Positions 1 to 38,769 of a stretch of 64,000 nucleotides of DNA are shown here, in pieces (position 1 is the first letter of the stretch; each line of letters opens with the position of its first letter). A model generated the notes under the pieces. That model ran no database searches. It saw nothing but the letters and a program-made list of their open reading frames with translations, and was not told the DNA's origin. Source of the stretch: Candidatus Latescibacterota bacterium (GTDB taxonomy: Bacteria; Latescibacterota; UBA2968; UBA8231); contig OZ244561.1 of NCBI GenBank assembly GCA_965217585.1, positions 1,312,001 to 1,376,000 of the forward strand, in the 5' to 3' direction. The position numbers and the translations under genes were made by a program.

Positions 1-639
1 CAGGTCGTAATCGCCAAAGGCCGCCCCAGTGCTCCACCGGTCGTCGCCGACCCCGGCGCTGACCGTGGCGTCCTCAAACCGGCCATCGCCTCTGTTGCGG
101 TAGAGTCGGTTGGATCCATAATTGGTGATGTACAGATCCGCGTTCCCGTCGTTGTCGTAATCCGCCGCCACACAACCCATCCCCCAACTCGTGTCGTTCG
201 CCGCTGCTGCCGCGGTCACGTCGGCAAAGCGCCCCCTGCCTGTATTGCGGTAGAGGGCATTGTCCAGAGGCGGGACATGGCCGGTTCGCTCCAAAGTGGA
301 CCCATTGACCAGATATATATCGAGATACCCATCGCCGTCGTAATCGAAAAAAGCGGCCCCACCGCCTTTGGCTTCTAGGATATGCCATTTCTCCGGTCCT
401 CCGGAACGGTGTTGCCAGTGCAGACCAGCCTGCTCGGTGACGTCCGCAAATAGCGGGGCGGCCCGTTGCGGCATAATCGGTGGAGGGTCTGGAGCGCAGG
501 CGACTAGAGCCCAGACCACACCCAGCGCAGTCCAGACCGCCGCAACCTCGCCTCTAAGGCCCTGCGCGGAAACACTTGGGGCCAACCCGGCGCAAGCGCG
601 TTTTTGTCCCAAGGCCTCAAATATCGCATTCACGAGCAT
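1..639 (-). CDS. CRTAC1/FG-GAP (ASPIC-UnbV type) family lipoprotein, 5' part; runs off the left edge
   Basis: Hand translation of the minus frame gives lipobox-like VWALVAC, then [56 protein letters not shown]. Closely parallels 17816..19525. Start ATG at 639 is tentative. Confidence 0.88.
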   Translation of the reverse strand, partial: MLVNAIFEALGQKRACAGLAPSVSAQGLRGEVAAVWTALGVVWALVACAPDPPPIMPQRAAPLFADVTEQAGLHWQHRSGGPEKWHILEAKGGGAAFFDYDGDGYLDIYLVNGSTLERTGHVPPLDNALYRNTGRGRFADVTAAAAANDTSWGMGCVAADYDNDGNADLYITNYGSNRLYRNRGDGRFEDATVSAGVGDDRWSTGAAFGDYDL

Positions 640-646
640 TGCCGTT

Positions 647-1891
647 CTACTGTCCACTCCGGCGCTGAGCCGTGGCTAGCAGTTCTAAAACACGGGATTG
701 GGTGGAGTCGAGAGCCGTGGCCTTTTCGAGGGCCTGCACTGCCAGCAGATAGCGCTCTTGCCGCAGATAGACCTCCCCGATGGCCGCCAATACTGCGGCC
801 GAGTCTTCGTGCGAATCCCGGGCCCGCAGCAGGGCACTCTCGGCTTCTTCCAGCCGCCCCTGGCGCAGATAGAGCCGTCCCAGTCCGGTATGGGCAGCCC
901 CCAACTCGCTGTCGAGCCGGATAGCCTCCAGGTAGCAGCGCTCGGCCGTCCGCTCCCTACCATCCGCGGCTAGCACGTCAGCCAGCGCGAGCTGGGCCCG
1001 GGCATCTTGAGGCCAGGCCTCCGCCGCGGCCAGCAAGTCGGCCGCATCCTGCCCCTGGAGCGCTCTGAACCGCTCTAGGGCCTGCTCCCCGGCTTCTCTC
1101 TGCCCTGCCGCTAGGTAGAGCTGTCCCAAATTGAGATGGGCGGCGGCCAACTCCTCATCGAGTCGCACGGTCCGTTCCAACAGTTCAATAGCAGCCGCCT
1201 CTCGGCCGCCGAGCCGGTAGAGCACCGCTAGTTCGCACAGCACCCGGGCGTCTTGCGGCTGTAGTTCGAGGTATTTTTCATAGGCCGCTTCCGCGGCGGC
1301 AAGACGACCCTCGTAGCGGTACAGGCTGCCGAGACGCTCGTACGCGGACGCCAGCTGGGGATCGCGACTCAGAGCCTGCCTATAAGCCGTCTCGGCCGCG
1401 GCCAACTGGCCCCCGTGGTTGTAGAGATTGCCCAACCCGTAGTGATAGACCGCCCGGTCCGGCGTCCTAAAAACAGCCTGTCGGGCTGCTTCTAGGGCCC
1501 GGGCCAGTGCGGGACCTTGGTGAGTCTTGAGATAATGCATCAGAGAGAGTTCGGCGCGGGCGTAAAAGATCTCGGCTCGACTCGTATCTAGGGCTGTGGC
1601 TTGGTCTAGGGCCGTCTCGGCCAAGGCCACCTCCTCCAGGGCCAGGTAAGTGCGGCTCAGCCCTGTATAGGCCCGCACCGAATCCTCGGCTCCAGCCAGC
1701 GCCTCCTCGAATACCTCGAGGGCCAGTCTGTGGCGGCCGGCATCCAGATGCTGCTCGGCCAAGCGGTTGTGGAGGTTCAAATCGCCCAAAGTCCCGGCCG
1801 GCGGCGGACGATCCGTCTCGGTGCATCCACTCCAGATAAAGATCGCGGAGCATACGGCGATGGCGAGTACTTTGTGGGAGTCTGCAATCAT
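647..1891 (-). CDS. TPR-repeat lipoprotein
   Basis: Repeated A..Y..LG..Y...G....A...Y..AL...P helices. Signal and lipobox in MIADSHKVLAIAVCSAIFIWSGC. Start trimmed from the ORF-track 2158. Confidence 0.85.
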   Translation of the reverse strand: MIADSHKVLAIAVCSAIFIWSGCTETDRPPPAGTLGDLNLHNRLAEQHLDAGRHRLALEVFEEALAGAEDSVRAYTGLSRTYLALEEVALAETALDQATALDTSRAEIFYARAELSLMHYLKTHQGPALARALEAARQAVFRTPDRAVYHYGLGNLYNHGGQLAAAETAYRQALSRDPQLASAYERLGSLYRYEGRLAAAEAAYEKYLELQPQDARVLCELAVLYRLGGREAAAIELLERTVRLDEELAAAHLNLGQLYLAAGQREAGEQALERFRALQGQDAADLLAAAEAWPQDARAQLALADVLAADGRERTAERCYLEAIRLDSELGAAHTGLGRLYLRQGRLEEAESALLRARDSHEDSAAVLAAIGEVYLRQERYLLAVQALEKATALDSTQSRVLELLATAQRRSGQ

Positions 1892-2031
1892 TGGAACGGA
1901 AGTGATGTCCAGTACCGGAACCGCGCGGCTCCCCCTGAGCGTACACTGAACTGTAGCTAGCCGCGCTAGCCAGAATGCCATCCTCGACGCACTCCCTTCG
2001 TCCAAGACCCCACCTACTTGCAGGTCGCCGA

Positions 2032-3978
2032 TTAGTAGACCAGAGAAATGACGCCGCTCTGCTGCTCGTTCTGCCTGTCGGTCTCCACTTTGATGCGGTA
2101 GATGTAGTGGCCCGGAGGCACCGCGCGGCCGTCGTCGTCCCGTCCCTGCCAGAACCACTGGTAAGCACCGCTGAGCAATGGTCCGCTCTGCAGCTGACGG
2201 ATCTGGCGTCTGGACAGGTCGTAGATGGTGAGGCTGGACTGGGCGAGTTCGGTCAGGTTGAGAATCGAGTAGGAAATGCGGACTTGGTCGTTGACCTGAT
2301 CCCCGTTGGGCGTAAAGACCTCCGGCGCTACTCGCACCGAAGTGATGAGCCGCCTGCCAAAGGGGGTGACAACGGCCACACCACCGCCGCTGTAGGCATT
2401 GGTCGCATCGCCCGGATCTACCAATTGGCGCACCTCGTCGGCGCTCTGGTCGAAGATGCGACCGTTGAACTCCGTGCCGTATTTCACCACCCTCACATCG
2501 AATGCGACTTCGAGCAGTTTCTGGGTGTCTTGGGGACCAAAACGGGGAAAGTGGACCACCAGCCGGTCGTCTAGGATCTCTGGGGGATACTCCTCCAAGT
2601 CGACAGCCTCGCCCTCGATGCGCACCGAATGCACTCTGGCAGGACGGACAAAAGTATCGATCTCCAAGCTATCGAAACCCAAATCGGTCTCATCTAGGAC
2701 GGGCCGGAGGAAATAGGTGAAGGTCGTGTCCACTGCGGCCTCTACCTGCCGGGGAAAGATCTCGGCCACTGCGATTCGGGCGCTGGGGGGTTTGGAAAAA
2801 TCGAATCCGATCGCTTCAATGCGGCTGCCATCGGTGACAGTGGAGAAAAAATCCACGCGAAATTGGATGTAGCGCCGGGGGCCAGGAGAGGCGACCGGCA
2901 CCCCTGCAAAACCGCGATCAAAATCGTAGGGCGGCGACCAGAAGCTCCAGTTCTCCGTATCATAGGTGATGGGCCCGCGCTGCGTATTGGGCACTTTGCG
3001 GTAATCGTTCAGGTTCAGAGGTTTCCCGTCCACCTTCAGCGTCGAGAGTTCGGCCCCTCGGCCAGTGTCCCACCAGTACACGTTGGGGTCTTCGTCCGTG
3101 CCTGTGCGCGTGCGAATGACCACCCTAGCCCCTTTATCCCTGCTGCCGATCCAATGCAAACGCCCCCAGCTAGCCCGATCCCCGGGCAGGTCGGGGACGA
3201 TCGTTGCGATATCGATGATTTCGGAGATATAAGTGGCTTCCGGCACGAACCCTTCACCGTAGATCTCGAATTCGGCGATCTCCCAGGGCTTGGGCCGGAT
3301 CGGCGTACCGCCCGCCGACCTGAGTATCCGGGGCTGAATAGAGACGTAGCGCACCGGACGGGAGGAAAAGACCGTCTCTACCACTGGCTCTTTGTTTTCG
3401 CTCTCGTCGCGGATTTCCTCCCAGATGGGGTTGCCCCGGGTGTCGATCTTTTCTGGATCGCCATCGTTGAGGAAAAGGGCGAACACATCGGCGTACTGGG
3501 CCACCCGATCTGGATGTGTGTAGAACAGGATGCGGCTGACCGGGAAGATGCCCCCCAAGTCTACAGTGGGCCAGACATTGCCATAGCCCTCGCCAGCGAA
3601 GAAGTAGAAAGTGTTGATATCCCCGTCTAGGGCCCGGTAGAATTGTTTGTCGCGCTCTCCGATGCGGGTGCGCTCCCAACCGCCCCGCTCATCGTAGCCC
3701 GGACTCAAGTTGAAATCCGGCTCCACAAAGAAGGGCGCTATGTGGGGTCCCGCGGTGTCCACCAGCGCGAAGCCCCGCTCTTGCGGATGGGTGGATTCGC
3801 CCCGCTGGGCCCCGACCTCGATCCAAGTGCGGCTATCTACGGGCATCTCCGCGGGTATGGGCCATAGCCCATCCGTTGACCCCACCACCAGAAATGCGCG
3901 TGCCTCCGCGTCCCAGACGGCTGCCAAGCCGATGACTATCCCCACCAGCGCGATGTACGCGAAGCGTTTTGCACTCAT
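2032..3978 (-). CDS. Secreted protein with discoidin/F5-8C-like module and C-terminal PNGD/FlgD-Ig domain ending SLVY
   Basis: Signal peptide MSAKRFAYIALVG..AEA; ALDGDINT..VDLGG module; C-terminal PEVFTPNGDQVND...IYDLSRR...WQGRDDDGRAVPPGHYIYRI. Confidence 0.85.
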   Translation of the reverse strand: MSAKRFAYIALVGIVIGLAAVWDAEARAFLVVGSTDGLWPIPAEMPVDSRTWIEVGAQRGESTHPQERGFALVDTAGPHIAPFFVEPDFNLSPGYDERGGWERTRIGERDKQFYRALDGDINTFYFFAGEGYGNVWPTVDLGGIFPVSRILFYTHPDRVAQYADVFALFLNDGDPEKIDTRGNPIWEEIRDESENKEPVVETVFSSRPVRYVSIQPRILRSAGGTPIRPKPWEIAEFEIYGEGFVPEATYISEIIDIATIVPDLPGDRASWGRLHWIGSRDKGARVVIRTRTGTDEDPNVYWWDTGRGAELSTLKVDGKPLNLNDYRKVPNTQRGPITYDTENWSFWSPPYDFDRGFAGVPVASPGPRRYIQFRVDFFSTVTDGSRIEAIGFDFSKPPSARIAVAEIFPRQVEAAVDTTFTYFLRPVLDETDLGFDSLEIDTFVRPARVHSVRIEGEAVDLEEYPPEILDDRLVVHFPRFGPQDTQKLLEVAFDVRVVKYGTEFNGRIFDQSADEVRQLVDPGDATNAYSGGGVAVVTPFGRRLITSVRVAPEVFTPNGDQVNDQVRISYSILNLTELAQSSLTIYDLSRRQIRQLQSGPLLSGAYQWFWQGRDDDGRAVPPGHYIYRIKVETDRQNEQQSGVISLVY

Positions 3979-4036
3979 GACAAAGCTCCAAGCGTGGCGT
4001 GCATGGAACGGCAAAGTCGATTCCACCGCGGGCAGA

Positions 4037-6268
4037 TCAACGGGGCGATCCTCTTTCAAAGAGATCCTCGGCCTGCCTGCGGACGATTTCGAGGACTTCC
4101 CTCCCCCGCACCAACATCCGGTGCCGACGCATTTCCACCTCGGCCCGCTCTAGGTTCCCCAGCTTTCGGTAGAGTCGAGCCAAGTGGTTGTGCACTTGCT
4201 CTTCTTCTCCATGTTGGACGAGGTATTCGTACTGCTGTACCGCCTCGTCGTAGCGCCCCAGCCCCTCGTGGGCAATGGCCAGATTCCGCCGCGCACCCCG
4301 ATGGCCGGGCTCGAGGGCGAGACAGTCGCCAAAGGCCGCGGCCGCGGCCGCAAAATCCCGGCGCTTGAGAAAGACAACGCCCAAGTTGTTGTGCAGATCG
4401 CCGCGTTCGGGCTGACGCGCCAGCAGACGCCTGTATTCCCGTTCCGCCCACTGGTCCTCCCCCCTCTGGTCATAGAGATAAGCCAAGTTATAGCGGGCGT
4501 CAAAATGGTCGGGATCCAGTTCCAAGGCTCTGCGGTACTCGGCCTCGGCCTGCTCGAGAAGCCCCCCCGTGCGGTAGACTCCGGCCAAACCAAAATGGGA
4601 CCGCGCTTTTTCGGGCTCCAGTTCGACTATTTCCCCGAAGAGAGCCACAGCGGCCTCGATCCGGCCCCCCTCCAGGTAGAGATTGCCCAAATTGCGCCGG
4701 GGGGCCGTCTCCCGGGGGGCCTGCTCTATCAAGCGGCGATAGTGACCTTCGGCGCGGTCGATTTCCCCCAAGTCCCAGTATTGTTCGGCCAGCTTGAAAC
4801 GGGCGTCGTAGTGCCCGGGATCAAGTTCGAGGGCTTTGTGCAATTCGATGGTCGACCGGGCCGCCAGTCCCTTGCGGGCATAGGCCAGCCCGGTGTAGAA
4901 GCGCTCCTGGGCGTCGTCCTGCCAAGTGACCGCCCCGGCGTTTACACTCCAAGCCAGCAGCAGCAAGACCGCCCCCAGAGGCAGAACGACCCCCCATTGA
5001 CGGTCGAGGAGGCGCGCCTTGATCCACGCTCCAGCATAGCAGGCCAGCAGGATCAGCAGGGGAATGAGGGGCAGCCGGTAGCGAGCCGTCGGGAAAAAGG
5101 CAACGACCGCCCCAGCATAGCTCAGGACAAAAAGCACGATCAGCCCCCCCTTGCTCCCTTTTGCAGCCAGGACCAGTCCGACCAGAGCCAGAGGCGCTAT
5201 CAAACCGAAGGGAAAGGCCAACTTGTCATGCCAGACCAGGGCGCTCAACAGAGGCGAGTAGCGCCGGGCGAAATACATATCCGTATTGCGTCTAATCTCC
5301 CCTCCCTGCCAGAAGAGGCCGATTTTGCGAATCTGTAGGCTCACATAATCCACTGGTCGCTCTTTTATGAAAGCGAACGCCTCCCTCCAGAAATAGGCGG
5401 ATTGTTCCGAAGGCTTTGCCAGGCCGGCCTGCTGGGGGCGCCGAATCAGGCTGTACCATTCCGTTCCTGGACGCATTTGGGCCGTGCGCGGAAAATCGGC
5501 GTTATTGCCAATATAAAAATTCAGTCCTGAATTCGAAGAGAGCAGGACCACGTCCCGGCCGACCACCCAATTGCGCCAAGCGACCCCCCCCAACACTGCG
5601 CCGATCCCCAAGACAAACACCAATGCCCTGACGAGCCGGGCGGAAAAACGAGCCGGCTCTGAACGCAGGACCAGCCACCCCACCACGCCCAGACCAAAGG
5701 ACAAGACCGTGGGAATGGCCGTGGCCGCCAGTCCCAGCGCTAGGCCGGCGGCCAAGCAAACCCACTTACTTTGGGGAGTACCGTCCCGCAAGAGGAGGAG
5801 CAACAACCCCAGATTGAGCAAAATTCCCAGCACCGGCGGCAGCAATTCGCCCTCGAAATACAGCAGCGGACCGTACACCGAGGCGATCAGGCCAGCGGCC
5901 AAGCCCACGCCCGGGGAGAACACCCGCCGCCCTACTAGGTAGAGCAAAACCACGCTGAGAGCCCCTAGGGCGAACTGGACGAGCCGATAAGCGTAAAAAT
6001 TGGGCCCGAACAGCAGGTGGAGCAGTCCCAAAAAGGCCGGATAGAGCGGCGGCTGCCAGAAGGGCTCGTCGCCCAAGCTAAAGTGGGTCACCAACCGTTC
6101 GGCCTGCTGGAAATATGTCTGGGCGTCTACTACGGGCGTGTCGAAAAGTGGACTCTGCGCCGCCTCGTGGAGATAGACCAGCCGCCAGCCAAGGGCAAAG
6201 AGGAACAACCCGCAGGCGCTGATCCACACCGGCTTTTCCACCAGGCGAATGTACCAACCCGGCTCCAT
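4037..6268 (-). CDS. GT-C fold membrane glycosyltransferase (ArnT/PMT-like) fused to C-terminal TPR repeats
   Basis: N-terminal DAQTY...PFWQPPLYP loop, many TM segments, NSGLNFYIGNN and RYRLP motifs, then several TPRs. Confidence 0.85.
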   Translation of the reverse strand: MEPGWYIRLVEKPVWISACGLFLFALGWRLVYLHEAAQSPLFDTPVVDAQTYFQQAERLVTHFSLGDEPFWQPPLYPAFLGLLHLLFGPNFYAYRLVQFALGALSVVLLYLVGRRVFSPGVGLAAGLIASVYGPLLYFEGELLPPVLGILLNLGLLLLLLRDGTPQSKWVCLAAGLALGLAATAIPTVLSFGLGVVGWLVLRSEPARFSARLVRALVFVLGIGAVLGGVAWRNWVVGRDVVLLSSNSGLNFYIGNNADFPRTAQMRPGTEWYSLIRRPQQAGLAKPSEQSAYFWREAFAFIKERPVDYVSLQIRKIGLFWQGGEIRRNTDMYFARRYSPLLSALVWHDKLAFPFGLIAPLALVGLVLAAKGSKGGLIVLFVLSYAGAVVAFFPTARYRLPLIPLLILLACYAGAWIKARLLDRQWGVVLPLGAVLLLLAWSVNAGAVTWQDDAQERFYTGLAYARKGLAARSTIELHKALELDPGHYDARFKLAEQYWDLGEIDRAEGHYRRLIEQAPRETAPRRNLGNLYLEGGRIEAAVALFGEIVELEPEKARSHFGLAGVYRTGGLLEQAEAEYRRALELDPDHFDARYNLAYLYDQRGEDQWAEREYRRLLARQPERGDLHNNLGVVFLKRRDFAAAAAAFGDCLALEPGHRGARRNLAIAHEGLGRYDEAVQQYEYLVQHGEEEQVHNHLARLYRKLGNLERAEVEMRRHRMLVRGREVLEIVRRQAEDLFERGSPR

Positions 6269-6271
6269 GGT

Positions 6272-9200
6272 TCAGTACACTACACTCACTACCCGGACCT
6301 GAGTGTTCTGCACATCCTCGTCCGTATCCACGTGGATGCGGCACAGGTAGATTCCGGGAGGCACCTGAGCCCCGGAGACATCGCGGCCATCCCATTCTAG
6401 CACCTGTCGCCCGCCCACCCCGGCGGCGGCTACTCGGGCTACGGGAACGCCATTGAGGGTCGAAAATTCGGCTTCGATCCGGCGGTCCTTATCGATCTTC
6501 AGCACGGAGAATACTACCTGCAGTCGGTCATTGACGCCGTCGCCATTGGGCGTAAAGGGATTGGGAGTCAATTCTAGACTGTGGAGGACGCGGTTCTCGA
6601 TGGGGACGAATACAACTGCGCCTTGGCCTTCCACTCGGTCCATGGCATTTCCTTGGTCCACTTGCTGCCACGAATCGGCGATGCCAGAATTGCTTACCTC
6701 GGACCTAAAGGTCGTGCCGTTGAGGAAAATCTGGGAAATGAACCGCAATTCGACCACCTTTCCCCCCTGAAGGACTGTGCCGCGCTGGGTGCGAGGGAGC
6801 GCGGCGTAAGTGGCCCGGGTGAGCGATTCGCCGTCATTGTCCAGCGCGACCTCTTCCCCCTCGAACAAGCGGCGGAAATAGCGCATCGGCCCCTGGGCTT
6901 CAAAAGACAGAGTGTTATAGGTGTTCTGGTCCACCGGCTCCAACAAGGGAACCCCGGTCGAATCGGTTTCCACGATCCGAAAATAATCGATGCGGCCCTG
7001 CTCGCTTTCCGGCAGCAGACCGTACTCGCGCCGGGAGAGGGTCCGTCCCCGTTTGTTGAGCGGGGCTTCATCGCCCGTCTGGGCGATGCGCTGGTAAATG
7101 GGCCCTTTGTCGGGATTGTCTTCTACTGGACGCGGCAGTTGGATCCACAAGGTATCGGCCCCAGTAGCGCGGATCTGCACGTTCTCTCCCGCATCGTTGA
7201 CCAAGACATCTGGACCGCCGGCCCGGAAGATCTCCCCTTCACCCTCTAGTAACTCATCCGGCGTCCCGAGGCGCACCTCGAGCAATTCCATGGCCGTCTG
7301 CTGCGAGGCCAGCACCCGGATCTCGTCGAAGCGCGGACTGCGCAATTGGGCGGGCTGGTCGACAAAAACAGGGCTTAGGTACAGCGAAAAGGTATCGGGC
7401 GCAGCGCTTCGCACATCAATCTGAGGGGATATTTCGCTGACAATCCGCTGGACAATGGGGTCAGTGAAGTGGACGATCAGCGAATCTAGGGTGGCAAAGG
7501 CATCGGGCCGGCTGGAGAGTATCCGAGCCTGGATCTTGAGGAACTTCCTCGGCGAGGGCGAGAGGAACAGATCCCCTGAGTTTTCATAGGGTTTACTCCA
7601 AGGACTCCAGTCGACCCCTGCGGAAAAGGTGGCGGTCGAATCGCCGCGCTGGAAAGTGGCCAGCTGATTGTAGTACTTTTCGCGGGTGACTTCCTTGCCC
7701 CCCTTGTCGAAGAAGTGCTTGACCGGGATCAGTTCGCTGCCAGTCTGAGTGCGGATCTCTATAAGCGTGCCCGGCGGAGTTTCGCCCGCCCAGAGGACCC
7801 GGGTGAGATTGCGCGTCCCCCCCAACTCCATGAGCGGCGACGTGAGTACCACTTCGGGGACGTAGCCCTGCCCGAAGAATTGAATCTCGCCAATTTCGTA
7901 CTGCGCCCCGTACTGGCCGGAGCTCCGGCCAGTGCCGTCGATGTGCTTGAATTCGAAGAAGCGGACTTGGCGGGCCCGAAAGCGGTCTTCAAAACGGGCT
8001 AGAGCCGTTGTGTTGATCTCGCGTTCTGGGGGACTGACTACCTCCCACAACAGCGAGCCATCCGAGGCCGTGGACCCGTCTGAAACCCGGGCCACGTAGC
8101 CGAGGAGGCGCCGCCGGGGATTATCGGGAATGACGCGGTACGTATCCATCCAAAAATTCATCCCGAAGTCGAGGGTGAGTAGGCCGCCGCGTTCGCTCCC
8201 CGGTCCGGTTTCGAGGAAAGTCTGGGCCTTCCAGTAGGTTCTATAATCCCCGTCAAACGCAAGGGCCGGAATGTGCCCTTCGCGCCCCGACACCTCGACC
8301 TTGCCACCTCTATCCTGTAGTCCCAGAGCCAGATTGTCGCCCACGCCAAACACTTCTACATCGGCCAGGCGCGGCCTCTCTTTCCGGTAGTAGCGCACGC
8401 TTCCCCGACGCTCTTGGCCCACGCTTTCGAATTCGGTTTGAGTGGTGGCGATCTCCTGCCCGTCAAAGGTCCTGAGAAAGTAATCGATGGCACCCTGCTG
8501 GGCCGGAGGCAGCGCTTCGTAGTCTTGCCGACTGATCTCGACCGCCCGATTCTTCCGGCTATCCGTCACCACGATGCGCACGTACTGGATAGGAGCGCCT
8601 GTATAGTTCTCTTCGACCTTAAGGTCGGGCTCGAGGACGTATTCAAAAAGGCGCTGGTCCTGCACCGCGCGGGTAGTCCCGCCGATAATGCGGTACTCCA
8701 GAGTCTGCCGGTTGCCAAAGGCGAATTCGCCGTTGGAAACCAGCACCCTGAACTGGCGGAAAGGATCGCCCAACTCCTCATCGACAAAGCGCAGAACCAC
8801 CTTTTCCGCAGACACCAGTCTCCCCAGGTCAATCTCGATCCACCACTCGCTCTCGGGACGGTCGAGATCGGGTTCCCAAAAGGTCTCTAGGCGGTTTCTG
8901 CCCCGGTCGATGATTCCCGCTGTCTGGTCGACATTAGAGCCGGCGTTCTTGATACCACCCCAAGTAAACAGATCGTTGCCGTTTTGGAAGGTATTGATGT
9001 AGAAATCCTTGACTTTGCCTTCGATGAAATGGCTGAAGGTGGGGGCGTCGCTCACCGCGTCGACCCCCTTGCGGATGAAGCGAGGCACGACCAGACCCGC
9101 GGGCGTAATTTCCAAGACGTCCTGGCGGACCTCTCCTACCGGTTCCTGGAGACTGCCCAAGCTCCACTCGTTCCAGTCCCGCGCCCGAGCCACTGTGAGG

Positions 9201-9304: not shown

Positions 9305-9380
9305 GGCTTATCCTCTTTGGAGGATCGGGTAATAGGGGCCGGGACCGTCGTCAGAGTGGTGGACCCGGAGTCCTTAAACC

Positions 9381-9414
9381 GGACGAGGGAGGCTATACAA
9401 CGCCTCCCTCGTCC
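9381..9414 (-). terminator. Intergenic hairpin (terminator-like or mRNA-stabilising)
   Basis: Perfect 13-bp stem GGACGAGGGAGGC / GCCTCCCTCGTCC with 8-nt loop, downstream of 9489..10403. U-tract is weak. Confidence 0.55.
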
Positions 9415-9488
9415 TCGCAAAAAATACTGCTCAAAAACAGGCGAATACGTCGCCTGTCTGCGTCTTGATCTTCGGCTTGTCCAGATTA

Positions 9489-13224: not shown

Positions 13225-13289
13225 GTTGATAAATACACCTGTCAAATGAAAAGCTCGTGCCCGCGGGGCCTGTCAAAGGAGGGCTTGGC

Positions 13290-31071: not shown

Positions 31072-31092
31072 GAAAAAAGACAGATCTGCGGG

Positions 31093-32916
31093 CTACTTCA
31101 GCAGCAGCATTTGCTTGCTATCCGCAAACGAGCTGGCCCGCAGTTCGTACAGGTACACCCCGCTGCCCACGGATTCGCCCTCGGCGTCCTGGCCATCCCA
31201 CTTGATTTCGTAGGAGCCAGCCTGTAGCTCGCCGTCCATCAGGCGGGCTACCAACTGACCGGAGATATTGTAGATATCGAGGACGACCACTCCGGCCGCT
31301 GGAATGGCAAAGCGGATCGCGGTTTCGGCATTGAAGGGATTGGGGTAGTTGTCGCCCAAGGCATAGTCAGACGGCAGGGACTCGCCGCTCAACTCCGCCA
31401 CCGCAGTAGCTGCATCGCTGCCAATGACGCCGGTACTCACGTCAAAGGGGAAGTGGACCAGTTCCTGCTGGCCGGTCGGCGCGTACAGACCGTCGTAAGG
31501 ACCCCCACTGGAGACCCAGTACAGGTCGGAAGCCAGCCCGGTGGGCATCTTGGGCAAATTGACGTTGAACAGACCGTGCCCGTCCGGCCCTAGGACAGTG
31601 CCCCAGAAGGGCTGGTTGAAACCAGAGAAAAAGGCGATGTGATGCCGGCCGACATTGGCGTGGGTAACGGCCATCTGGTGGTCAAGCCCATCTTCGGCAA
31701 AACCGCGGGCCGTGGCCTCCTCGCCGAAATAGCGGTCGAGAAAGCCGTCGCCGTTGCGGTTGAGCCAGATGAGGTCGCCGTCTAAAGTGACATGGGCTGG
31801 AAGCGAAATTGGATTGTACCATAAACCTGAGACGTATATCCCGCGGTCGTCCACATCGACTCCCCAGGGACCTTGGCTGCCCGTTTCGTGCAGGTAAACC
31901 TCGCTCAGATCGAGAATATTGGCGATTTCACCGGTGGCGCGGTCGACCGCAACAACGGCCGGCACCAATGGCTCTTCGACATCGCGATTGGCCAGATAGA
32001 TCATGCCGTCGTCGGCGACCCAGGAGTGATGCGAGGCCTGCGACACGGCCGAACTGGCGATGCGGGCGTTGACACGGACATAACCCCGATCGGCTGCGGC
32101 CCAATCTTCGTCCGGCAGGATAGTGCCGTTGTCTGGATCGAATTTGACCCGCCACACACCGCTGCCCCGCGCCACGTCAAACTGGGCGTTGTTGGTGATA
32201 TAGGCGACGTTGGGATCGGCTGGGTCGGGCTGGTAGGAACTGATGTCCCAGTACTGGATTTCCTGACCGTGGCGCTCGTTCATCCAAGGAATCAGGAAGC
32301 TTTCATAGGCCTCGGGGTTTTGGAAGTAGTCGAGGCCGAGTTCACCGCGGCGGATCTCCCACTCCGCCCCTTGGTTGGAGGTCCAGACCACGGGCGGATC
32401 GACATTGAGATCGACCCGGTTGGTCATCCAGTACGAATGCGAGCTGCCCGGGCCAACCCAGGTGGGATTGGAGATATTGTCCAGAGCGAAGAGGTAGTAC
32501 GTATAGGTGCCGGCCCCGACCTCGTTGCCATTGAAGTCCCGGCCATCCCAAGTGATGGAGTTGGCCCCTTCGCTGAAGGTCTGGCCGCCAGTGATGCTGA
32601 GCAAGGTGTCGAGCCCAGCGGCGCGCAACATGGAATTGCCCACGCCACCTTCGCCAAAGGCCGCACCATCGTACTGGGGATTGGCGTCCCGGGAGTACAC
32701 CGCCAAGTGCACTTCGGCCGGACCGCCGTTGAGCGTGAAGGGCAGCTCGACCGGACTGCCGTCAAAGGAAACATCGCGGGAGTCGAGCGTGAGGACATTG
32801 GGCGTGCCGCTGCGCCAATCGTTGGCGCGATCGAAATTCGGATTGCCGGCCGTGCCCGACTGGGCCAAGGCAGTGCCGACAAAGACCAGAGAAAAGAGCA
32901 CAGATAACATCTTCAT
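31093..32916 (-). CDS. Secreted protein with T9SS type A-like/FlgD-Ig C-terminal domain
   Basis: Signal peptide; NYPNPFNAETAIRFAIP...IYNISGQLV...WDGQD...SGVYLYEL...KQMLLLK. A second FlgD-like segment (ITWDGRDFNG..VGAGTYTY) lies near the N-terminus. Confidence 0.88.
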   Translation of the reverse strand: MKMLSVLFSLVFVGTALAQSGTAGNPNFDRANDWRSGTPNVLTLDSRDVSFDGSPVELPFTLNGGPAEVHLAVYSRDANPQYDGAAFGEGGVGNSMLRAAGLDTLLSITGGQTFSEGANSITWDGRDFNGNEVGAGTYTYYLFALDNISNPTWVGPGSSHSYWMTNRVDLNVDPPVVWTSNQGAEWEIRRGELGLDYFQNPEAYESFLIPWMNERHGQEIQYWDISSYQPDPADPNVAYITNNAQFDVARGSGVWRVKFDPDNGTILPDEDWAAADRGYVRVNARIASSAVSQASHHSWVADDGMIYLANRDVEEPLVPAVVAVDRATGEIANILDLSEVYLHETGSQGPWGVDVDDRGIYVSGLWYNPISLPAHVTLDGDLIWLNRNGDGFLDRYFGEEATARGFAEDGLDHQMAVTHANVGRHHIAFFSGFNQPFWGTVLGPDGHGLFNVNLPKMPTGLASDLYWVSSGGPYDGLYAPTGQQELVHFPFDVSTGVIGSDAATAVAELSGESLPSDYALGDNYPNPFNAETAIRFAIPAAGVVVLDIYNISGQLVARLMDGELQAGSYEIKWDGQDAEGESVGSGVYLYELRASSFADSKQMLLLK

Positions 32917-33063: not shown

Positions 33064-33107
33064 AATAAAAACTCGGCCTCTAAAAAGTCCCTGTTGGCGC
33101 AGCTCGC

Positions 33108-34685
33108 TTATGGGGTCTGCTTGGAACGGACTAGGTCTAGAAAGGGCCGGATGCGCGGATAATCGGGCTGCAACTCGAGTACCTGTTCAAAGGCGGCCTC
33201 GGCTTCTGGGTAGCGCTGCAGATCAATCCAAGCCAAACCGAGTCCAAAACGAGCGTGGACGTGCCCGGGGTCGGTTGCTAGGACTTGCTCAAAGAGCGGC
33301 ACGGCCTGGGCGGGGCGCAGCCCGCGCACGTGGAGCATGCCCAATTCGAATCGCGCCTTGGTCCACCCAGGCTCGAGGACCAAAGCCTTCGTAAAGGCCG
33401 CGGTGGCCCGCTCATCGCCTCCGGCCTTGGCATGGGCCTGACCCAGGCGCAGATGGAAGCGCGCCGAATCCGGGGCTAGGGCCACGGCCCTTTCTAGGGC
33501 GGCAATGGCTTGGTCCGTCCGCCCCTGCCGGTCGTAGACCAAGCCTAGATCGGCGAGGATCCCAGCCATGCCCGGCTCGAGGGCCAAGGCTTTTTTGAAC
33601 TCTTCGATGGCCCGCTCGTACCGGCCGGCTTCGGTATAGGCCACGGCCAAGGCGCGGCGTTCTAGCGCTCCTTCGGGTTGTCGCTGGACCCGCAGTTGGG
33701 CCATATAGAGCGAGTCTTGCTCGCCTTCTTCGAGGGCGACAAAGCGCTCCTGAGCGCGCTGGCTAGCGGCGGTGCGGCCCAAAAGTTGGTAGGACTTGGC
33801 CAAGTTGTAGTAAGCCTGCCGGTAGCGCGGTTCGAGGGCGATGGCGCGCTCGTACGCCTCCACGGCTCTGGAGGGCGATCCCCGTTGATCTAGAACCCTC
33901 CCCAGGTTGTAGAACGCTTCGGCATCCGTGGAGTCGAGCCCGATGGCCGCCTGCAACGAGACGGCCGCTTTGTCCAAGTCGCCTTTTTCCAGATAGATGG
34001 CACCCAAGCGGCGATGCGCTGCCACTAGGCCTGTATCGAGTTCTAGGGAACGTTTATACGCAACTACAGCTTGGGAGGATAGATTCCGCAATTCGTAGGT
34101 GCGGCCCAGATTGTAGTGGAAATAGGCATTGGTCGGCTCGAGATCCACGGCCCTGTTCAGGGAGGCAATGGCCGCGTCGAGATCGGTGTAGCTAAGATTG
34201 GTGGGTTTATCCGTGGCCGTGGGTGCGCGCCGCGCATAGGCCACCCCGAGGTGAAAATGGGCCTCGGCGAATTCCGGGGCCAAGGCCGCGCTCTGCCGCC
34301 AGTGCTGGATGGCGTCGTTGTACTTGCCGATCCGAGCGTACACTTGTCCCAAGCCAAAGTGGGCCCGCACGCTGGCGGGGTGATTTTCCAGGACGACTTG
34401 GTAGAGCGCCACAGCGCGGGCGTATTCAGCCTGCTGGGCCAAGGCCGCGGCCAGATCGCAGTACATATCGGGATCGGCTCGGCCTTCCCGTATGGCCGCC
34501 TCTAGAGCACCGAGCGGCAGGGCCGACCGGGGACCGGAGCCATAGCGGGCGCGCAACTGATCCTGGCGTGCGGATGCCAGCTCGTATCTCTCGTCGGTGC
34601 AGCCACTGAGCGAGATGACCGCTAGCGCGAGCAAGAGCCGATAAGGCTGAGACCTATCACTGCGCCTGCAGGGCTCTATCCGCAT
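33108..34685 (-). CDS. TPR-repeat lipoprotein
   Basis: Lipobox LSGC followed by many TPR helices. Confidence 0.88.
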   Translation of the reverse strand: MRIEPCRRSDRSQPYRLLLALAVISLSGCTDERYELASARQDQLRARYGSGPRSALPLGALEAAIREGRADPDMYCDLAAALAQQAEYARAVALYQVVLENHPASVRAHFGLGQVYARIGKYNDAIQHWRQSAALAPEFAEAHFHLGVAYARRAPTATDKPTNLSYTDLDAAIASLNRAVDLEPTNAYFHYNLGRTYELRNLSSQAVVAYKRSLELDTGLVAAHRRLGAIYLEKGDLDKAAVSLQAAIGLDSTDAEAFYNLGRVLDQRGSPSRAVEAYERAIALEPRYRQAYYNLAKSYQLLGRTAASQRAQERFVALEEGEQDSLYMAQLRVQRQPEGALERRALAVAYTEAGRYERAIEEFKKALALEPGMAGILADLGLVYDRQGRTDQAIAALERAVALAPDSARFHLRLGQAHAKAGGDERATAAFTKALVLEPGWTKARFELGMLHVRGLRPAQAVPLFEQVLATDPGHVHARFGLGLAWIDLQRYPEAEAAFEQVLELQPDYPRIRPFLDLVRSKQTP

Positions 34686-35145
34686 ACTCCCGATCCTCGG
34701 GGAAGTCGACAAAGGGATGGGCACCAATTGAAATCAGCTTGGTAGCCGGATTCACGGTCAACCGAGCGTATTTTCCAAAGGGACGCCAGCGTTTCGCCTG
34801 GCTTTTGTCTATCTTCCTCGGCTCGTTCTTCGGCGGGTCAAGGCCAATGGTGCGGAAAGCCTCGGCTTCGTCAAAGGGCTCCATGGCGGCGAAATTATAA
34901 GTGACATAGACAATTTTGCCCTTTTTGATGACCGCGAACAGTTTCACTCCCCCAACATCCTCCCAGCGCATAAAACCCATGCGCTTTTCGGTTTCCTCTC
35001 TATACTGCTTCGGTTCTCCCAAGCGCACCTGCACCGCCGCGGGAGTGCTAGCCAGCAGAGCGTGGGCGTCCAGGGGTTTTTCCGGGGCACAGGCTGGGCC
35101 GAGAAGCAGGACTGCGACCCATAGGCAAAAGCCGGACCATTTCAT
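34657..35145 (-). CDS. Hypothetical lipoprotein
   Basis: MKWSGFCLWVAVLLLGPAC lipoprotein signal; compact 162-aa ORF in line with the operon. Confidence 0.7.
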   Translation of the reverse strand: MKWSGFCLWVAVLLLGPACAPEKPLDAHALLASTPAAVQVRLGEPKQYREETEKRMGFMRWEDVGGVKLFAVIKKGKIVYVTYNFAAMEPFDEAEAFRTIGLDPPKNEPRKIDKSQAKRWRPFGKYARLTVNPATKLISIGAHPFVDFPEDREYADRALQAQ

Positions 35146-35278
35146 AGGGGGATTTTTTCGCTGTGATGCTCGGTGTCTTCTCGCCGAATTGGCGCAAGAA
35201 TAGGCGAGTTGGCCGGCTGCGTCAAGGTTTGCCGCGCGCTTGACAAATGCAGGGGCGCACTTCAGTTTCGGCCAAACC

Positions 35279-37213
35279 ATGGGCAACCAGTCAAAGGGTT
35301 TTTTCATCGCCTGCATTGGGCTGCTGACAAGCGCCAGTATCCACATGGGGTGCGGCGAACTCCGGCAAAAGCCCAATGTCGTGGTATTGCTGGTCGACAC
35401 GTTGCGCGCCGACCATCTCAAGTGCTACGGGTACCACAGGAACACGGCCCCGTTCCTCGAGGGACTAGCCCGCCGCGGCGCGATCTTCACCCAGTGTTAT
35501 GCTCCCTCCGACTATACCCCGGCTTCTACTGCCTCCTTGTTCACGGGGCAGTACCCGCTAGCGCACGGGTATCTCAACTCGCACTACGTCCTCGCCGAGA
35601 CCCACACCACCATGGCCGAAATCTTCCAGCGGCAGGGATATACCACGGCGGGATTTATCGCCAATGGCTTGGCCGGCGGGAAGTACCAGATGGACCAGGG
35701 GTTTGACCACTACTTTGAAAAGAACAGGGCCTCGGCCGCGGAACTGGTCGCCGCGGCATCCGCCTTCATTGAGCAACAGGCCGACGAACCCTTTTTCGCG
35801 TACCTGCATTTTCTCGATGTCCACGATCCCCACCGGATTCCCGGGGAATACCACGGCCGCTTCGCCGATCCGGCGGACTTTGCCTACGATATGCAAGACA
35901 CCCTCCAACTCGACAAATTCGTCATGCGGGCCTGGTGGGAGGCGGCGCAAGGATGGCGCGATCAGACTGTGGGATCCGAGCAGGTTGCGGCTTATTTTGC
36001 CGACTACGTCCAGCTCTACGATGCATCCATTTCTTACTGGGACGAGCACTTGGGGGCCTTGCTCGACCTTCTCGCCGTTCGGGGAATTGATCAGCGGACG
36101 ATCATCGTGGTGACCTCGGATCACGGGGAGCAGTTTCTCGAGCACGGCTATTTCGGACACGGCAATTCAGGCTATCAGGTCGGCTTGCACATCCCCTTTA
36201 TTATCTGCGATCCGCTGCACCCGAACATCGCCGGTTTGCAAATTGACAATCTGGTCAATGCCGTCGATATCCTGCCCACCTTGCTGGCCCGGCTCAATTG
36301 GCAAATTGCTCCGGCCGTGCAGGGCCAGGAGCGCTGGTCTTTGCTCGCGTCCGACGCGCCGGACGAGGTCGCCGAAAGCATTTATACAGAGGGGACCTTC
36401 ATGGCCAACCGGCCTTTCAGCACCTTGATCCAGACCTACCGGGAAGGGGAATGGAAGCTGCTGCTCGATCGCCTGCGGGATACCAAGGAACTCTACCATT
36501 TAAAAGAAGATCCGGGCGAACTTTGCGACCGCTTTGCCGAGCAGCCGGAAATCGCCGCCCAACTCTACGGCAAAATCCGCCAGTACTACAATGGCAACTT
36601 GCAGCTCTTCGCGCGACAACAACAGTCGCAAATGCCGTTGGCAGAGCAAAAATTGCAGGAGTTGCGAGCCTTGGGTTACATTACAGGGCGAGCCGGATTG
36701 CAGAGGCCGGCGGCGGAGTTTTTCCCTATGAAGCCGGTCCGCCTAAAAAGATTCGGCCCCTTTGGGGACGAAGAGGATTTGGGCAGGTTTTCCCCTGCGA
36801 TCGATTTTTTTCGCGGCCAAGTCGCTTGGGGACAAGTCATTGGCGGGTACAGCGATAGGGTGGGCCAACGGGATTCGGCCGGGGTTTGGTTCGATCGGCG
36901 GGCGACTTTTCTCATGCCCAACCAGCCCGTTGGGCAACGGGTGGTCGTCGAGCTGACCATTGATCCTATGGGAGGGGCTGACAATCCGACCCGGATCGAA
37001 GTCAAATTCAACGATAAACCCAGCGGAGCTTGGGCTCTCAATGGGGTCGGGCCCTATCGGCTCGAAGCGGCACTTCCCGCCTTTTTGCAGCAGAGCGCTT
37101 TCTTTTATCTGACCATTGAGGCCGACAACCGCTTCGTCATCCGCAAAGCAACATCGGTTCGCGACGATATATATGGGGCCATGCGAATTCGTAGATTGTA
37201 TCTGGAGGGATAA
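35279..37213 (+). CDS. Sulfatase-like alkaline-phosphatase-superfamily lipoprotein
   Basis: PNVVVLLVDTLRADHL, TSDHGE, GHG and ELRALGYI motifs. No CxPxR formylglycine motif. Confidence 0.85.
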   Translation: MGNQSKGFFIACIGLLTSASIHMGCGELRQKPNVVVLLVDTLRADHLKCYGYHRNTAPFLEGLARRGAIFTQCYAPSDYTPASTASLFTGQYPLAHGYLNSHYVLAETHTTMAEIFQRQGYTTAGFIANGLAGGKYQMDQGFDHYFEKNRASAAELVAAASAFIEQQADEPFFAYLHFLDVHDPHRIPGEYHGRFADPADFAYDMQDTLQLDKFVMRAWWEAAQGWRDQTVGSEQVAAYFADYVQLYDASISYWDEHLGALLDLLAVRGIDQRTIIVVTSDHGEQFLEHGYFGHGNSGYQVGLHIPFIICDPLHPNIAGLQIDNLVNAVDILPTLLARLNWQIAPAVQGQERWSLLASDAPDEVAESIYTEGTFMANRPFSTLIQTYREGEWKLLLDRLRDTKELYHLKEDPGELCDRFAEQPEIAAQLYGKIRQYYNGNLQLFARQQQSQMPLAEQKLQELRALGYITGRAGLQRPAAEFFPMKPVRLKRFGPFGDEEDLGRFSPAIDFFRGQVAWGQVIGGYSDRVGQRDSAGVWFDRRATFLMPNQPVGQRVVVELTIDPMGGADNPTRIEVKFNDKPSGAWALNGVGPYRLEAALPAFLQQSAFFYLTIEADNRFVIRKATSVRDDIYGAMRIRRLYLEG

Positions 37214-37222
37214 GTTGAGTCT

Positions 37223-37912
37223 GTGGATCTCGTAAGCGAACTCTGGTACTCTATGGCCTTCACTGGCAAGGCCGTGGTGGTGATCTTGGCCGGCCTGTCC
37301 ATTTATTCCTATGCGGTCATGGTGGACCGCGGCTTAACTTTGCGCTGGACCCGGCAGCGTTCGGCCGCTTTTGCCCGTGAAATTGAGGAGGGCGGTCTGA
37401 TGCTAGGGGCAGTCGAAGCGGTGCAGGAATGCGCCCGTCGAGCCGAGCAAGACGGACATTGCCCCCTAGCGGGGGTGATCTCAGCCGCTCTGGCGGAGTA
37501 CGAGCTATTGGCGGAGGAAGGACAGGTCGATGCCGTGGTGCTGGAGGCCGTGGACGATGCGCTCGGCCGCTCGCTGGACAGCGTGGTCGCCAATCTGCGG
37601 GTCCGGCTCTCCGGCATGGCCACCATTGTGGGGGTCGCGCCCTTCTTGGGGCTTTTTGGCACAGTGACTGGATTGATCGCCGCTTTTCGCGGCATTGCCA
37701 CCGCAGGGGGCGGGGGCCTAGCCGAGGTATCGGGCGGGATCTCCGAAGCCCTCGTCACCACGGTTATCGGCCTGTTTGTCGCCATGCCCGCGCTGTGGGC
37801 GTACAATTTTTTTACCAACCGCATTGAGGCAATGTCGCTCGGGCTGGAAAACAACGCGGCCCGCATCGTCGGCCACGTGGTGCGGCGCGCGCTCAAGGCC
37901 AATCGCGCCTAG
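37223..37912 (+). CDS. MotA/TolQ/ExbB proton channel protein
   Basis: ATIVGVAPFLGLFGTVTG...GGISEALVTTVIGLFVAMPA signature. Confidence 0.93.
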   Translation: MDLVSELWYSMAFTGKAVVVILAGLSIYSYAVMVDRGLTLRWTRQRSAAFAREIEEGGLMLGAVEAVQECARRAEQDGHCPLAGVISAALAEYELLAEEGQVDAVVLEAVDDALGRSLDSVVANLRVRLSGMATIVGVAPFLGLFGTVTGLIAAFRGIATAGGGGLAEVSGGISEALVTTVIGLFVAMPALWAYNFFTNRIEAMSLGLENNAARIVGHVVRRALKANRA

Positions 37913-37921
37913 TCAATAATC

Positions 37922-38350
37922 ATGGCCAGACGAAGCAAGCGCCGAACTCGCCACACCGAAGTGCGGCGCAGCCCCATGCCCGATATCACGCCCATCGTCA
38001 ATGTGGCGCTGGTGCTGTTGATTGTCTTCATGGTGGTCATGCCGCTCATTCAAGAGGGCATCTTGGTAGAAACGCCCGCAGCCCGCAATGCCCAAGAGAT
38101 CGTCGAGCAACTCGGCGCAGAGAGTTTGATTCTCTCCATTAAGGAAGACGGTTCCCTGTACATAAATTTGCACCAAGTGGCGCGGGCCGACCTCAAAAGC
38201 GAACTGGCCAGGGCCTACCACGGCAAGGAGGGCGAGCCCATCATCGTCAAAGGCTCCAAGAATCTACCCTATCGCGAAATACTCGACTTGATGGAAATCT
38301 GTCAGGAGATCGGGGCACCGGGAGTGGATTTAATGGTCAAAAAACCGTAA
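37922..38350 (+). CDS. ExbD/TolR family protein (Asn at the usual TM Asp position)
   Basis: DITPIVNVALVLLIVFMV TM segment; periplasmic IIVKGSKNLPY....LME.....G. Confidence 0.9.
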   Translation: MARRSKRRTRHTEVRRSPMPDITPIVNVALVLLIVFMVVMPLIQEGILVETPAARNAQEIVEQLGAESLILSIKEDGSLYINLHQVARADLKSELARAYHGKEGEPIIVKGSKNLPYREILDLMEICQEIGAPGVDLMVKKP

Positions 38351-38367
38351 GCCAGCCTTACACTTCC

Positions 38368-38769
38368 ATGGCGCGACGGCACAGCAGGAAATTCGCCCGG
38401 GTAGAATCATCCATGAACGCGACCCCACTGGCGGACGTATCCCTTTCCTTGCTGCTGGGTTTCTTGGTGATCACCCCGATTATTCTGCAAACCTTGGCGA
38501 CCAAACTGCCCCAAGCGGGCGGGGTCGCTTCGGGGCAAGTTCGCCAAGATCCGAGGGTCGTTCTCACGGCAGAGGGCGAAATCCTGATCAACGACCAAGA
38601 GGTGAGCGAGGAAGAATTGCCGGCTAGGCTGGAAGAACTCTTTCCGCCTGAAGCCGATGTGGAGCGTCGAGTCGTGTTTACGGGATCAGGGGAAGTCCCG
38701 TACCGAGATGTGATCGGCCTACTCGATCTGCTCAAGGAAAACGGCGTCGAAACCATCGGCATCCGTTGA
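38368..38769 (+). CDS. ExbD/TolR family protein
   Basis: NATPLADVSLSLLLGFLV TM segment; VPYRDVIGLLDLLKENGVETIG. Confidence 0.9.
   Translation: MARRHSRKFARVESSMNATPLADVSLSLLLGFLVITPIILQTLATKLPQAGGVASGQVRQDPRVVLTAEGEILINDQEVSEEELPARLEELFPPEADVERRVVFTGSGEVPYRDVIGLLDLLKENGVETIGIR

Follow-up and report, generated by a model that had tools for sequence, protein, structure and literature searches.

The locus and its core genes

We analysed a 64,000-nucleotide (nt) window of a Candidatus Latescibacterota bacterium genome (assembly GCA_965217585.1, contig OZ244561.1, positions 1,312,001 to 1,376,000 of the forward strand), the first 39 kb of which are dominated by envelope genes. Two protein families form the core of this region: secreted proteins with a C-terminal sorting-type domain (C) and large outer-membrane barrels of about 900 amino acids (aa), here called B. 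Adjacent C and B genes belong, together with a parvulin-type peptidyl-prolyl isomerase (PPIase), a GT-C fold glycosyltransferase and a protein resembling family 9 carbohydrate-binding modules (CBM9), to a cassette that is seen in metagenome-assembled genomes with the labels Latescibacterota, Handelsmanbacteria and Gemmatimonadetes. In the literature that we searched we found no account of such a cassette.

The gene inventory is based on six-frame open reading frames (ORFs) and on hidden Markov model (HMM) scans with Pfam and NCBIfam, and comprises 25 ORFs in 1-43764 and 19 more in 44811-63999. Signal peptides and lipoboxes were judged by eye from the translations of the window, without a predictor. 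A first-pass annotation of positions 1-38769 had proposed a single export or surface machine energised by the proton motive force (PMF), and every item of its component list was recovered at its place by the ORFs and HMM scans. It had also described nearly all of the products as secreted, lipoprotein or membrane proteins and many of the genes as tightly coupled. A signal peptide or lipobox is indeed readable in nearly all products, and 4-bp overlaps join B1 to the PPIase gene and B3 to B2. The AgmX-like and CRTAC1-like genes overlap by 1 nt, gaps of 3 nt and 4 nt separate C4 from B4 and B2 from the AgmX-like gene, and throughout the six genes C4-B4-B3-B2-AgmX-like-CRTAC1-like every junction is a gap or overlap of at most 19 nt. 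The core genes are as follows (TPR, tetratricopeptide repeat; CTD, C-terminal domain).

2032-3978, minus strand: C1, 648 aa, CTD ending LVY (CHU_C 35.7 bits)
4037-6268, minus strand: GT-C fold glycosyltransferase (PMT_2 37.8 bits) with a C-terminal TPR domain (TPR families)
6272-9304, minus strand: C2, 1010 aa, discoidin domain, CTD ending VVY (Pfam, BLASTP paralogy)
9489-10403, minus strand: S311, secreted CBM9-like protein, 304 aa (Pfam matches of orthologs)
10825-13224, plus strand: C3, 799 aa, secreted, discoidin and Ig-like domains, type B-like CTD ending AVVY (FlgD_ig 33.6 bits, CHU_C 29.8 bits), putative cargo partner of B1
13257-15983, plus strand: B1, 908-aa outer-membrane barrel (AlphaFold2 model), 33 nt after C3
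15980-17695, plus strand: parvulin-type PPIase lipoprotein with two parvulin domains, SurA/PrsA-like (Rotamase_2 60 bits, Rotamase 37 bits, weak SurA_N_3; lipobox LAAC)
20657-23473, minus strand: B2, barrel paralog, 938 aa (32% identity to B3 over 898 aa)
23470-26187, minus strand: B3, barrel paralog, 905 aa with the ATG at 26187 as start (signal peptide MVLFLVVLAWSAPAFG)
26210-28897, minus strand: B4, barrel paralog, 895 aa (32% identity to B3 over 889 aa)
28901-30964, minus strand: C4, 687 aa, discoidin domain, type B-like CTD ending AVVY (F5_F8_type_C 44.7 bits, CHU_C 30.5 bits), upstream of B4

Conservation of the cassette in other genomes

A genome scan with the barrel alignment matched at least 646 stretches of DNA, at least 640 of which were confirmed, and the best 80 were turned into 74 loci with 10-kb flanks; the search patterns favoured B1-like genes over the subfamily of the B2-B4 type. 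By hand count, 62 loci carry labels beginning with Latescibacter and 10 with Gemmatimonad, while one is labelled Handelsmanbacteria and one, on a 4.7-kb contig, Bryobacterales. The nearest locus is the one from Handelsmanbacteria, with 72% identity in B1 and a gene order identical to that of window positions 2032-17695. A C gene lies directly upstream of B, on the same strand and within 500 bp, for 86 of the 102 B genes in these loci; three of the remaining 16 stand at a locus edge and 13 have a different neighbour or none. The recurrence of this order indicates that the pairing is more than chance. Downstream of the 102 B genes the most frequent neighbour is the GT-C gene (58), with S311 in nine cases and a locus edge in 26.

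The gene content of the loci, as judged by tblastn with 22 window proteins, separates a core from occasional companions. The C family is found in 72/74 loci, the GT-C enzyme with its TPR domain in 67/74, the PPIase lipoprotein in 60/74 and S311 in 57/74; they are followed by TPR proteins (34/74), the DUF6785 membrane protein (29/74) and CRTAC1-like FG-GAP proteins (25/74). C5-like proteins (8/74), AgmX-like proteins (3/74), the sulfatase (2/74) and ExbB/ExbD (1/74) are rare, and these four counts are unaltered at E<0.01. Two layouts are common: DUF6785, PPIase, TPR, FG-GAP, C, B, GT-C, C, C, S311; and DUF6785, PPIase, C, B, GT-C, C, C, B, S311. The cassette is also repeated within genomes, as on the 6.4-Mb chromosome OZ247580.1, which has at least nine B genes in six loci (hand count).

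Further evidence for the unity of the C-B pair comes from covariation. Distances between CTDs follow those between barrels (Mantel r=0.92 for 58 pairs, a value reached by 0 of 999 permutations), which shows that C and B are passed on and duplicated together; this is a statement about joint inheritance, not contact. The neighbourhood is otherwise poor in shared genes. In 1.5 Mb of loci there are just 224 ORFs of at least 150 aa outside the cassette families, and they fall into 144 clusters, the largest of which reaches nine loci. Pfam was run on 66 of the 144 cluster representatives, the remaining 78 all being singletons, and among these 66 no family named for a component of type IX secretion systems (T9SS) was found. 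Glycoside-hydrolase domains came from representatives of two loci, and representatives of two loci were TonB-dependent receptors (TBDRs).

These data change the picture of the region in one respect and strengthen it in another. Instead of a single 39-kb complex, the region comprises about three units of a cassette that is present many times per genome, plus neighbours that are not conserved. On the other hand, the proposal of a lineage-specific envelope system for surface proteins holds up well, with core families that are strongly syntenic in other genomes and with glycan and calcium binding suggested by domains and motifs. Neither a lack of synteny nor an assignment of the ~900-aa proteins to a known system was found: C, B, PPIase, GT-C with TPR, and S311 are syntenic, and B has no match to an HMM of a known family.

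Two observations concern individual cassettes. At L003:8149-9438 the C and B genes are separated by an ORF that encodes a DNA methylase domain and a zinc ribbon of the IS1595 type, which suggests insertion of a mobile element into the cassette. The largest neighbour cluster that is not represented in the window is a protein of 1062 aa that combines a spermine-synthase-like domain with TPR repeats, found after the GT-C gene at L031:14911-18096 and in eight other loci.

The barrel family

The four ~900-aa barrel-like proteins had been described as paralogs, and B1-B4 do align over their full length with 25-32% identity (BLASTP E 1e-36 to 1e-115). None of them has a Pfam or NCBIfam match at E<=0.01. 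B1 has no match among PDB sequences at E<=1, and the best E value of the family profile there is 1. The family is nonetheless large: 1086 proteins reach E<=0.001 among 7997 scored candidates, and of 1.84 billion cluster representatives searched with the profile, 1133 reach E<=0.001 and 382 of these also reach E<=1e-30. Among the 120 family matches listed, none has a Pfam domain and each supplied name is 'hypothetical protein'.

An AlphaFold2 model of B1, built from a 61-row alignment, has a mean predicted local distance difference test (pLDDT) of 72.3 and a predicted template modelling score (pTM) of 0.65, with long antiparallel strands at 119-256, 425-510 and 640-905. The number of strands is about 26, as counted from the DSSP string only. 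Two inserts interrupt the barrel, a confident beta-sandwich at 257-424 and a low-confidence region rich in Asp and Asn at 511-639; the N-terminal part, 31-111, is also of low confidence. The Asp/Asn-rich insert is the best-conserved part of the protein, since about 20 of the 56 invariant columns among 61 family members lie within residues 544-636. It is here that B1 has a canonical EF-hand-like loop, D-x-N-x-N-G-x-[IV]-D-x-x-E (residue 616), which is also present in B3 and in B4 (residue 600), with a variant in B2. Judging by this motif, B is predicted to bind calcium.

When the B1 model was compared with the PDB by Foldseek, the matches listed were all generic large outer-membrane barrels, among them MtrB, SlpA, FimD, LptD and TBDRs, with template modelling (TM) scores of 0.15-0.26. 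The best of them, MtrB (26 strands), LptD (26), the FimD usher (24) and Deinococcus SlpA (30), are single-chain barrels that hold or pass a partner protein, and they resemble B1 in strand number and in having a lumen big enough for a protein domain. They differ from it in the low TM scores, in the lack of any sequence relation to B1 in the PDB and in their partners; moreover, an SLH domain, an usher plug, usher N- and C-terminal domains and an LptD jellyroll are all missing from B. Assembly of chaperone-usher-like fibres and a barrel of the SlpA type as anchor of an S-layer coat were both considered and set aside, as nothing but generic fold matches speaks for them.

Known families were also tried individually. 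No PorP/SprF match was obtained for 24 B-family members at E<=1 or for B1-B4 at E<=0.01, and no PorV or FadL chain appears among the 49 of at least 500 Foldseek matches listed for B1. B1-B4 match neither the N-terminal plug (PF07715) nor the 22-strand barrel (PF00593) of TBDRs including SusC, and Foldseek matches to TBDRs have TM scores of ~0.2; the same Pfam scan readily detects true TBDRs in two neighbouring loci. Pfam at E<=1 on the 24 members gave sub-threshold SlpA_C in two, PelB_C in one (E 0.034) and nothing else. As for the Deinococcus-type SlpA family (PF21620), a precomputed label is present on 5 of 90 B-family matches, and on rescanning four of the five match locally, below the cutoff. 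B1-B4 have no PF21620 match and no SLH domain, and distant members reach at best 30.2 bits (cutoff 35) over ~100 of 656 profile positions. We treat this match of ~70-100 residues in a few distant members as a lead, not as a relationship. The nearest named Atlas cluster for B1, DUF6029 (0.89), was under a meaningful level and was not used. B is thus a large outer-membrane barrel that maps to no known system by HMM.

Cargo proteins and their C-terminal domain

The first-pass annotation had also listed four FlgD-Ig paralogs with -VY tails. C1-C4 are indeed paralogs and match both FlgD_ig and CHU_C at each C-terminus, with tails LVY in C1 and VVY in C2-C4, and C1 shares 37% identity with C3 over 359 aa (BLASTP). 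The CHU_C score exceeds the Pfam cutoff of 27 bits in C1 (35.7), C3 (29.8) and C4 (30.5) and is below it in C2 (20.7), whose size class is the one that precedes B in most other loci. It is also above the cutoff in the C genes of L006 (1022 aa, 35.4 bits) and L042. Pfam assigns the CTD to both FlgD_ig and CHU_C, the latter described as 'Type IX secretion signal domain', and one C ortholog carries the NCBI name 'gliding motility-associated C-terminal domain-containing protein', which is the product name of TIGR04131.

The CTD is formed by the last ~95 residues and can be aligned across C1-C4 and the C genes of other genomes. The alignment of 40 rows has 12 invariant columns; its invariant positions read PNxxTPNGDxxND ... 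W ... PGxY ... D, the terminal Tyr is near-invariant, and the PNPFTPNGDGIND motif is invariant in it. Endings of the form [VI][AV]Y, VEY or VVF are found in 61 of 70 ORFs upstream of B. At the level of sequence, the CTD of C is like a T9SS type B sorting domain.

In the AlphaFold2 model of C3 (mean pLDDT 84.4), beta-sandwich domains follow one another in a row, and a single region is mixed alpha/beta. Its Foldseek matches include the discoidin domain of galactose oxidase, PorU, S-layer proteins, alpha-2-macroglobulin, Ig domains of PrgB and Ig-like arrays. Neither the model nor its Foldseek matches showed a catalytic domain, and HMMs showed no enzyme domain. From this make-up of beta-sandwich and discoidin domains C looks like an adhesin or a structural surface protein with a carbohydrate-binding module.

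The identity of the tails also bears on the choice of the closest relative. The first-pass annotation had named the T9SS in general and the Myxococcus Agl-Glt machinery and missed a nearer parallel: the VY tails resemble CHU_C domains of the T9SS type B kind, which makes T9SS type B cargo a closer analogue than Agl-Glt. According to PMC9143113 and PMC12618676, genes of type B CTD cargo adjoin the genes of cognate 14-strand PorP/SprF barrels, the cargo is anchored uncleaved and the pairs are specific. The likeness to such pairs (SprB-SprF, PG1035-PorP) extends to the Sec signal and C-terminal CHU_C-type domain on the cargo, to a cargo gene adjoining its own outer-membrane barrel gene, to several specific pairs per genome with additional orphan cargo genes, and to adhesin-like cargo; nearby TPR and beta-propeller lipoproteins likewise recall the TPR and propeller domains of PorE. 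There are differences as well. The cassette adds the GT-C enzyme with TPR, the parvulin lipoprotein and the CBM9-like protein, and the CTD of C ends in an almost invariant Tyr. No T9SS core lies within the window, where the absence of such a core and of TBDRs had already been noted: none of the 25 + 19 ORFs matches SprA, PorK/L/M/N, PorV, PorP/SprF or a TBDR family in Pfam or NCBIfam. PMC11285876 reports T9SS genes in several phyla of the Fibrobacterota-Chlorobiota-Bacteroidota (FCB) group beyond Bacteroidota, and Latescibacterota is not listed there.

Accessory and neighbouring genes

The other genes of the region are listed below. They include two that were absent from the earlier component list (the small lipoprotein and the sulfatase) and one that lies outside 1-38769 (DUF6785).

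1-657, minus strand: cut FG-GAP and UnbV_ASPIC (CRTAC1-like) gene (Pfam)
647-1891, minus strand: TPR lipoprotein (Pfam and lipobox), followed by the cut FG-GAP gene
17816-19525, minus strand: CRTAC1-like FG-GAP/ASPIC beta-propeller lipoprotein (FG-GAP_3 172 bits, UnbV_ASPIC 65 bits)
19525-20652, minus strand: AgmX-like lipoprotein with a C-terminal AgmX/PglI (TonB_C-like) domain (NF033768 53.3 bits), 4 nt after B2
31093-32916, minus strand: C5, 607 aa, type A-like T9SS tail, ending LLLK (TIGR04183 28.8 bits, cutoff 23; FlgD_ig 67.6 bits)
33108-34685, minus strand: TPR lipoprotein (Pfam and lipobox)
34657-35145, minus strand: small lipoprotein, 162 aa, no family match, between the sulfatase and the TPR lipoprotein
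35279-37213, plus strand: sulfatase lipoprotein (HMM scans)
37223-38769, plus strand: ExbB/TolQ, ExbD, ExbD operon behind the sulfatase lipoprotein (Pfam MotA_ExbB and ExbD)
40823-42799, minus strand: DUF6785 and DUF6784 polytopic inner-membrane protein with at least 10 hydrophobic segments (Pfam 394.6 bits)

C5 differs from C1-C4 in passing the type A tail model TIGR04183. The S311 protein of the window has no Pfam match of its own, and its assignment comes from relatives: 8 of 26 orthologs match CBM9_1 (PF06452; best E 1.1e-4), and Atlas neighbours at 0.93-0.97 carry PF06452 on 13-94% of their members. The S311-family profile has no PDB match. The DUF6785 gene stands just before the PPIase gene in L006 and L042, and no mention of DUF6785 was found in the literature searched. 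In the window it is part of an operon with 4-bp overlaps that also encodes ThuA/GSDH and GFO_IDH oxidoreductases (38772-40826, 42796-43764). The CBM9-like protein, the TPR lipoproteins, the FG-GAP propeller lipoproteins and the DUF6785 protein are, by inference, accessories of the cassette.

Three further observations come from the rest of the window. A second pair of a TPR protein gene and a CRTAC1-like FG-GAP/ASPIC gene, with a 4-bp overlap, is located at 52865-55668 on the minus strand and mirrors the pair at 1-1891. The GC content of 44000-48600 is 0.50-0.54 as compared with ~0.60 elsewhere, and this segment, with genes for a helix-turn-helix protein, DUF4258, an EcsC-like protein and a Uma2 endonuclease, may be a mobile or defence islet. 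At 55758-56765 (plus strand) two adjacent ORFs, one of 137 aa and one of 194 aa, cover consecutive stretches of the cytochrome c552 N-terminus, at profile positions 1-32 (weakly) and 46-99, and may represent a split gene or a small haem protein.

Proposed mechanism and alternatives

Conservation of the C-B gene pair, the domains of the proteins, a barrel-like fold, the conserved sorting-type domain and the set of accessory genes are all established, and a display pathway that connects them can be proposed. For the multi-copy envelope cassette, of which the region holds about three units, we put the chances at about even that the core protein C reaches its place on the cell surface by way of its cognate barrel B. 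C would cross the inner membrane by Sec, a signal peptide being seen, and the parvulin lipoprotein would keep C (or B) competent in the periplasm. Enzymes of the GT-C class use lipid-linked donors on the periplasmic side, and the GT-C enzyme with TPR might glycosylate C from a lipid-linked sugar. C would then dock to its cognate B through the CTD, and B would either hold C on the cell surface or let it through. By analogy, the job proposed for B would be that of the 14-strand PorP/SprF for type B CTD cargo in Bacteroidota.

Several points weigh against this display pathway. The docking of C to B is inferred, and the pairing data concern gene order and joint inheritance; the roles of the PPIase and the GT-C enzyme likewise rest on knowledge of their families and on gene order. 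C genes outnumber B genes in the cassettes, and C1 and C2 of the window have no adjacent barrel. The NCBIfam type B model TIGR04131 stays under its cutoff of 35 in C1 (27.0), C3 (18.6) and C4 (19.7), and C2 has no match to it at E<=0.01. As to the barrel, 188 residues of the B1 model are below pLDDT 50 and its pTM is the 0.65 given above, and the number of strands, like the placement of the inserts on one side or the other, has been estimated from its DSSP string. In addition, PorP/SprF are 14-strand proteins of the FadL family with about 300-400 aa, whereas B is of ~900 aa, with ~26 strands, two inserts, EF-hand-like loops and no HMM match. When mature B1 (38-908) was co-folded, without controls, with the 125 C-terminal residues of C3, each chain having its own alignment, both runs scored 0.00, a result that counts neither way. 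A bolder version, which we regard as possible yet doubtful, is that B itself is the outer-membrane exit pore for CTD-tagged proteins, making the cassette a compact cargo-specific translocon with foldase and glycosyltransferase helpers, independent of SprA/PorKLMN.

The original idea was of a single PMF-energised machine, for export or akin to a motility apparatus, to which every gene in 1-38769 would belong; ExbB-ExbD-ExbD would drive the TonB_C-tailed lipoprotein, and the latter would energise the barrels as happens in Agl-Glt or TonB systems. The window does resemble Agl-Glt in holding together a TolQ/ExbB gene, two ExbD-type genes and an AgmX/PglI-domain protein. The operon is genuine by Pfam, all NCBIfam equivalog scores being below their cutoffs, so that ExbBD and TolQR are not separable. 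The AgmX-like protein scores 53.3 bits with NF033768, above the cutoff of 40 for the AgmX/PglI C-terminal domain, and its gene is only 4 nt from B2. One other locus, L027, is the only one to repeat the full set of the window, with ExbB-ExbD-ExbD (1-1041) directly upstream of the cassette and an AgmX-N-like lipoprotein (22077-22586) after the CRTAC1-like gene at its far end. The conservation data, however, point the other way. ExbB/ExbD within 10 kb in a single locus of 74 is about the chance level, assuming a ~5-Mb genome with a few such operons, and in the three loci with AgmX-like relatives the N-terminal lipoprotein domain alone matches; the relative in L046 is a 247-aa lipoprotein without a TonB_C domain. 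TonB-type coupling to ExbBD needs an N-terminal transmembrane anchor, whereas the AgmX-like protein, as read from its sequence, begins with a short lipoprotein signal with Cys (LLVCGC). Its scores with TonB_C (18.3, cutoff 24.6) and TIGR01352 (21, cutoff 27.1) are too low for a TonB, as are those with the GltG equivalog (25.5, cutoff 650) and GltE (also far under cutoff) for a Glt component. No TonB box or plug is recognisable in B. Besides, PMC4454575 predicts conventional TonB-dependent import via plug-domain receptors from Latescibacteria single-cell genomes, and ordinary TBDRs are also present in the genomes with the cassette, so these are receptors that ExbBD could serve. The idea that the operon energises the barrels is thus not supported, although the B2-B4 operon of the window may differ; the operon and the AgmX-like lipoprotein are local neighbours outside the conserved unit, and the single PMF-driven machine appears quite improbable.

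Two further readings assign B to the traffic of glycans. It could be the uptake channel of a nutrient-capture system resembling a polysaccharide utilization locus, with C and the CBM9-like protein binding surface glycans and DUF6785 serving as inner-membrane permease. The many paralogous cassettes per genome would fit, as would the CBM32-like domains on C, the CBM9-like S311, the sulfatase nearby and the operon of DUF6785 with the sugar oxidoreductases. Such a system is nevertheless unlikely in our estimate, for the cassettes carry a glycosyltransferase and a foldase and no degradative enzymes: glycoside-hydrolase domains come from representatives of just two loci among the 66 scanned and are absent from the 18 proteins of two fully annotated cassettes. 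In addition, C has a secretion-type CTD and B lacks a plug and a TonB box. The opposite direction, export of a glycan or exopolysaccharide, would cast B as a porin of the outer membrane, the TPR proteins as scaffolds in the periplasm (compare AlgK/AlgE, PgaA, BcsC and PelB) and the GT-C enzyme as the builder of the polymer. TPR proteins, glycosyltransferase and barrel do co-occur, and there is the weak PelB_C match in one distant B member together with Foldseek matches to the PelBC and PgaA barrels at E ~5e-5; yet these Foldseek matches are partial and generic, neither the two annotated cassettes nor the 66 representatives contain a processive cytoplasmic synthase, a c-di-GMP receptor or Wza/Wzc parts, and the strict C-B pairing with its conserved CTD would be left unexplained. 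We hold this to be the least probable of the explanations considered.

Implications

The barrel family to which B belongs is large yet unnamed. The tie between B and the CTD extends the rule that each cargo has its own barrel past Bacteroidota and to a different barrel, and the cassette offers a test case for whether CTD-directed display requires a full T9SS. If B itself were the exit pore, the cassette would be a secretion route apart from the T9SS and perhaps older, with nothing but the sorting domain in common. For the organisms themselves, the cassette provides a handle on how the cell surface is built in an abundant uncultured group.

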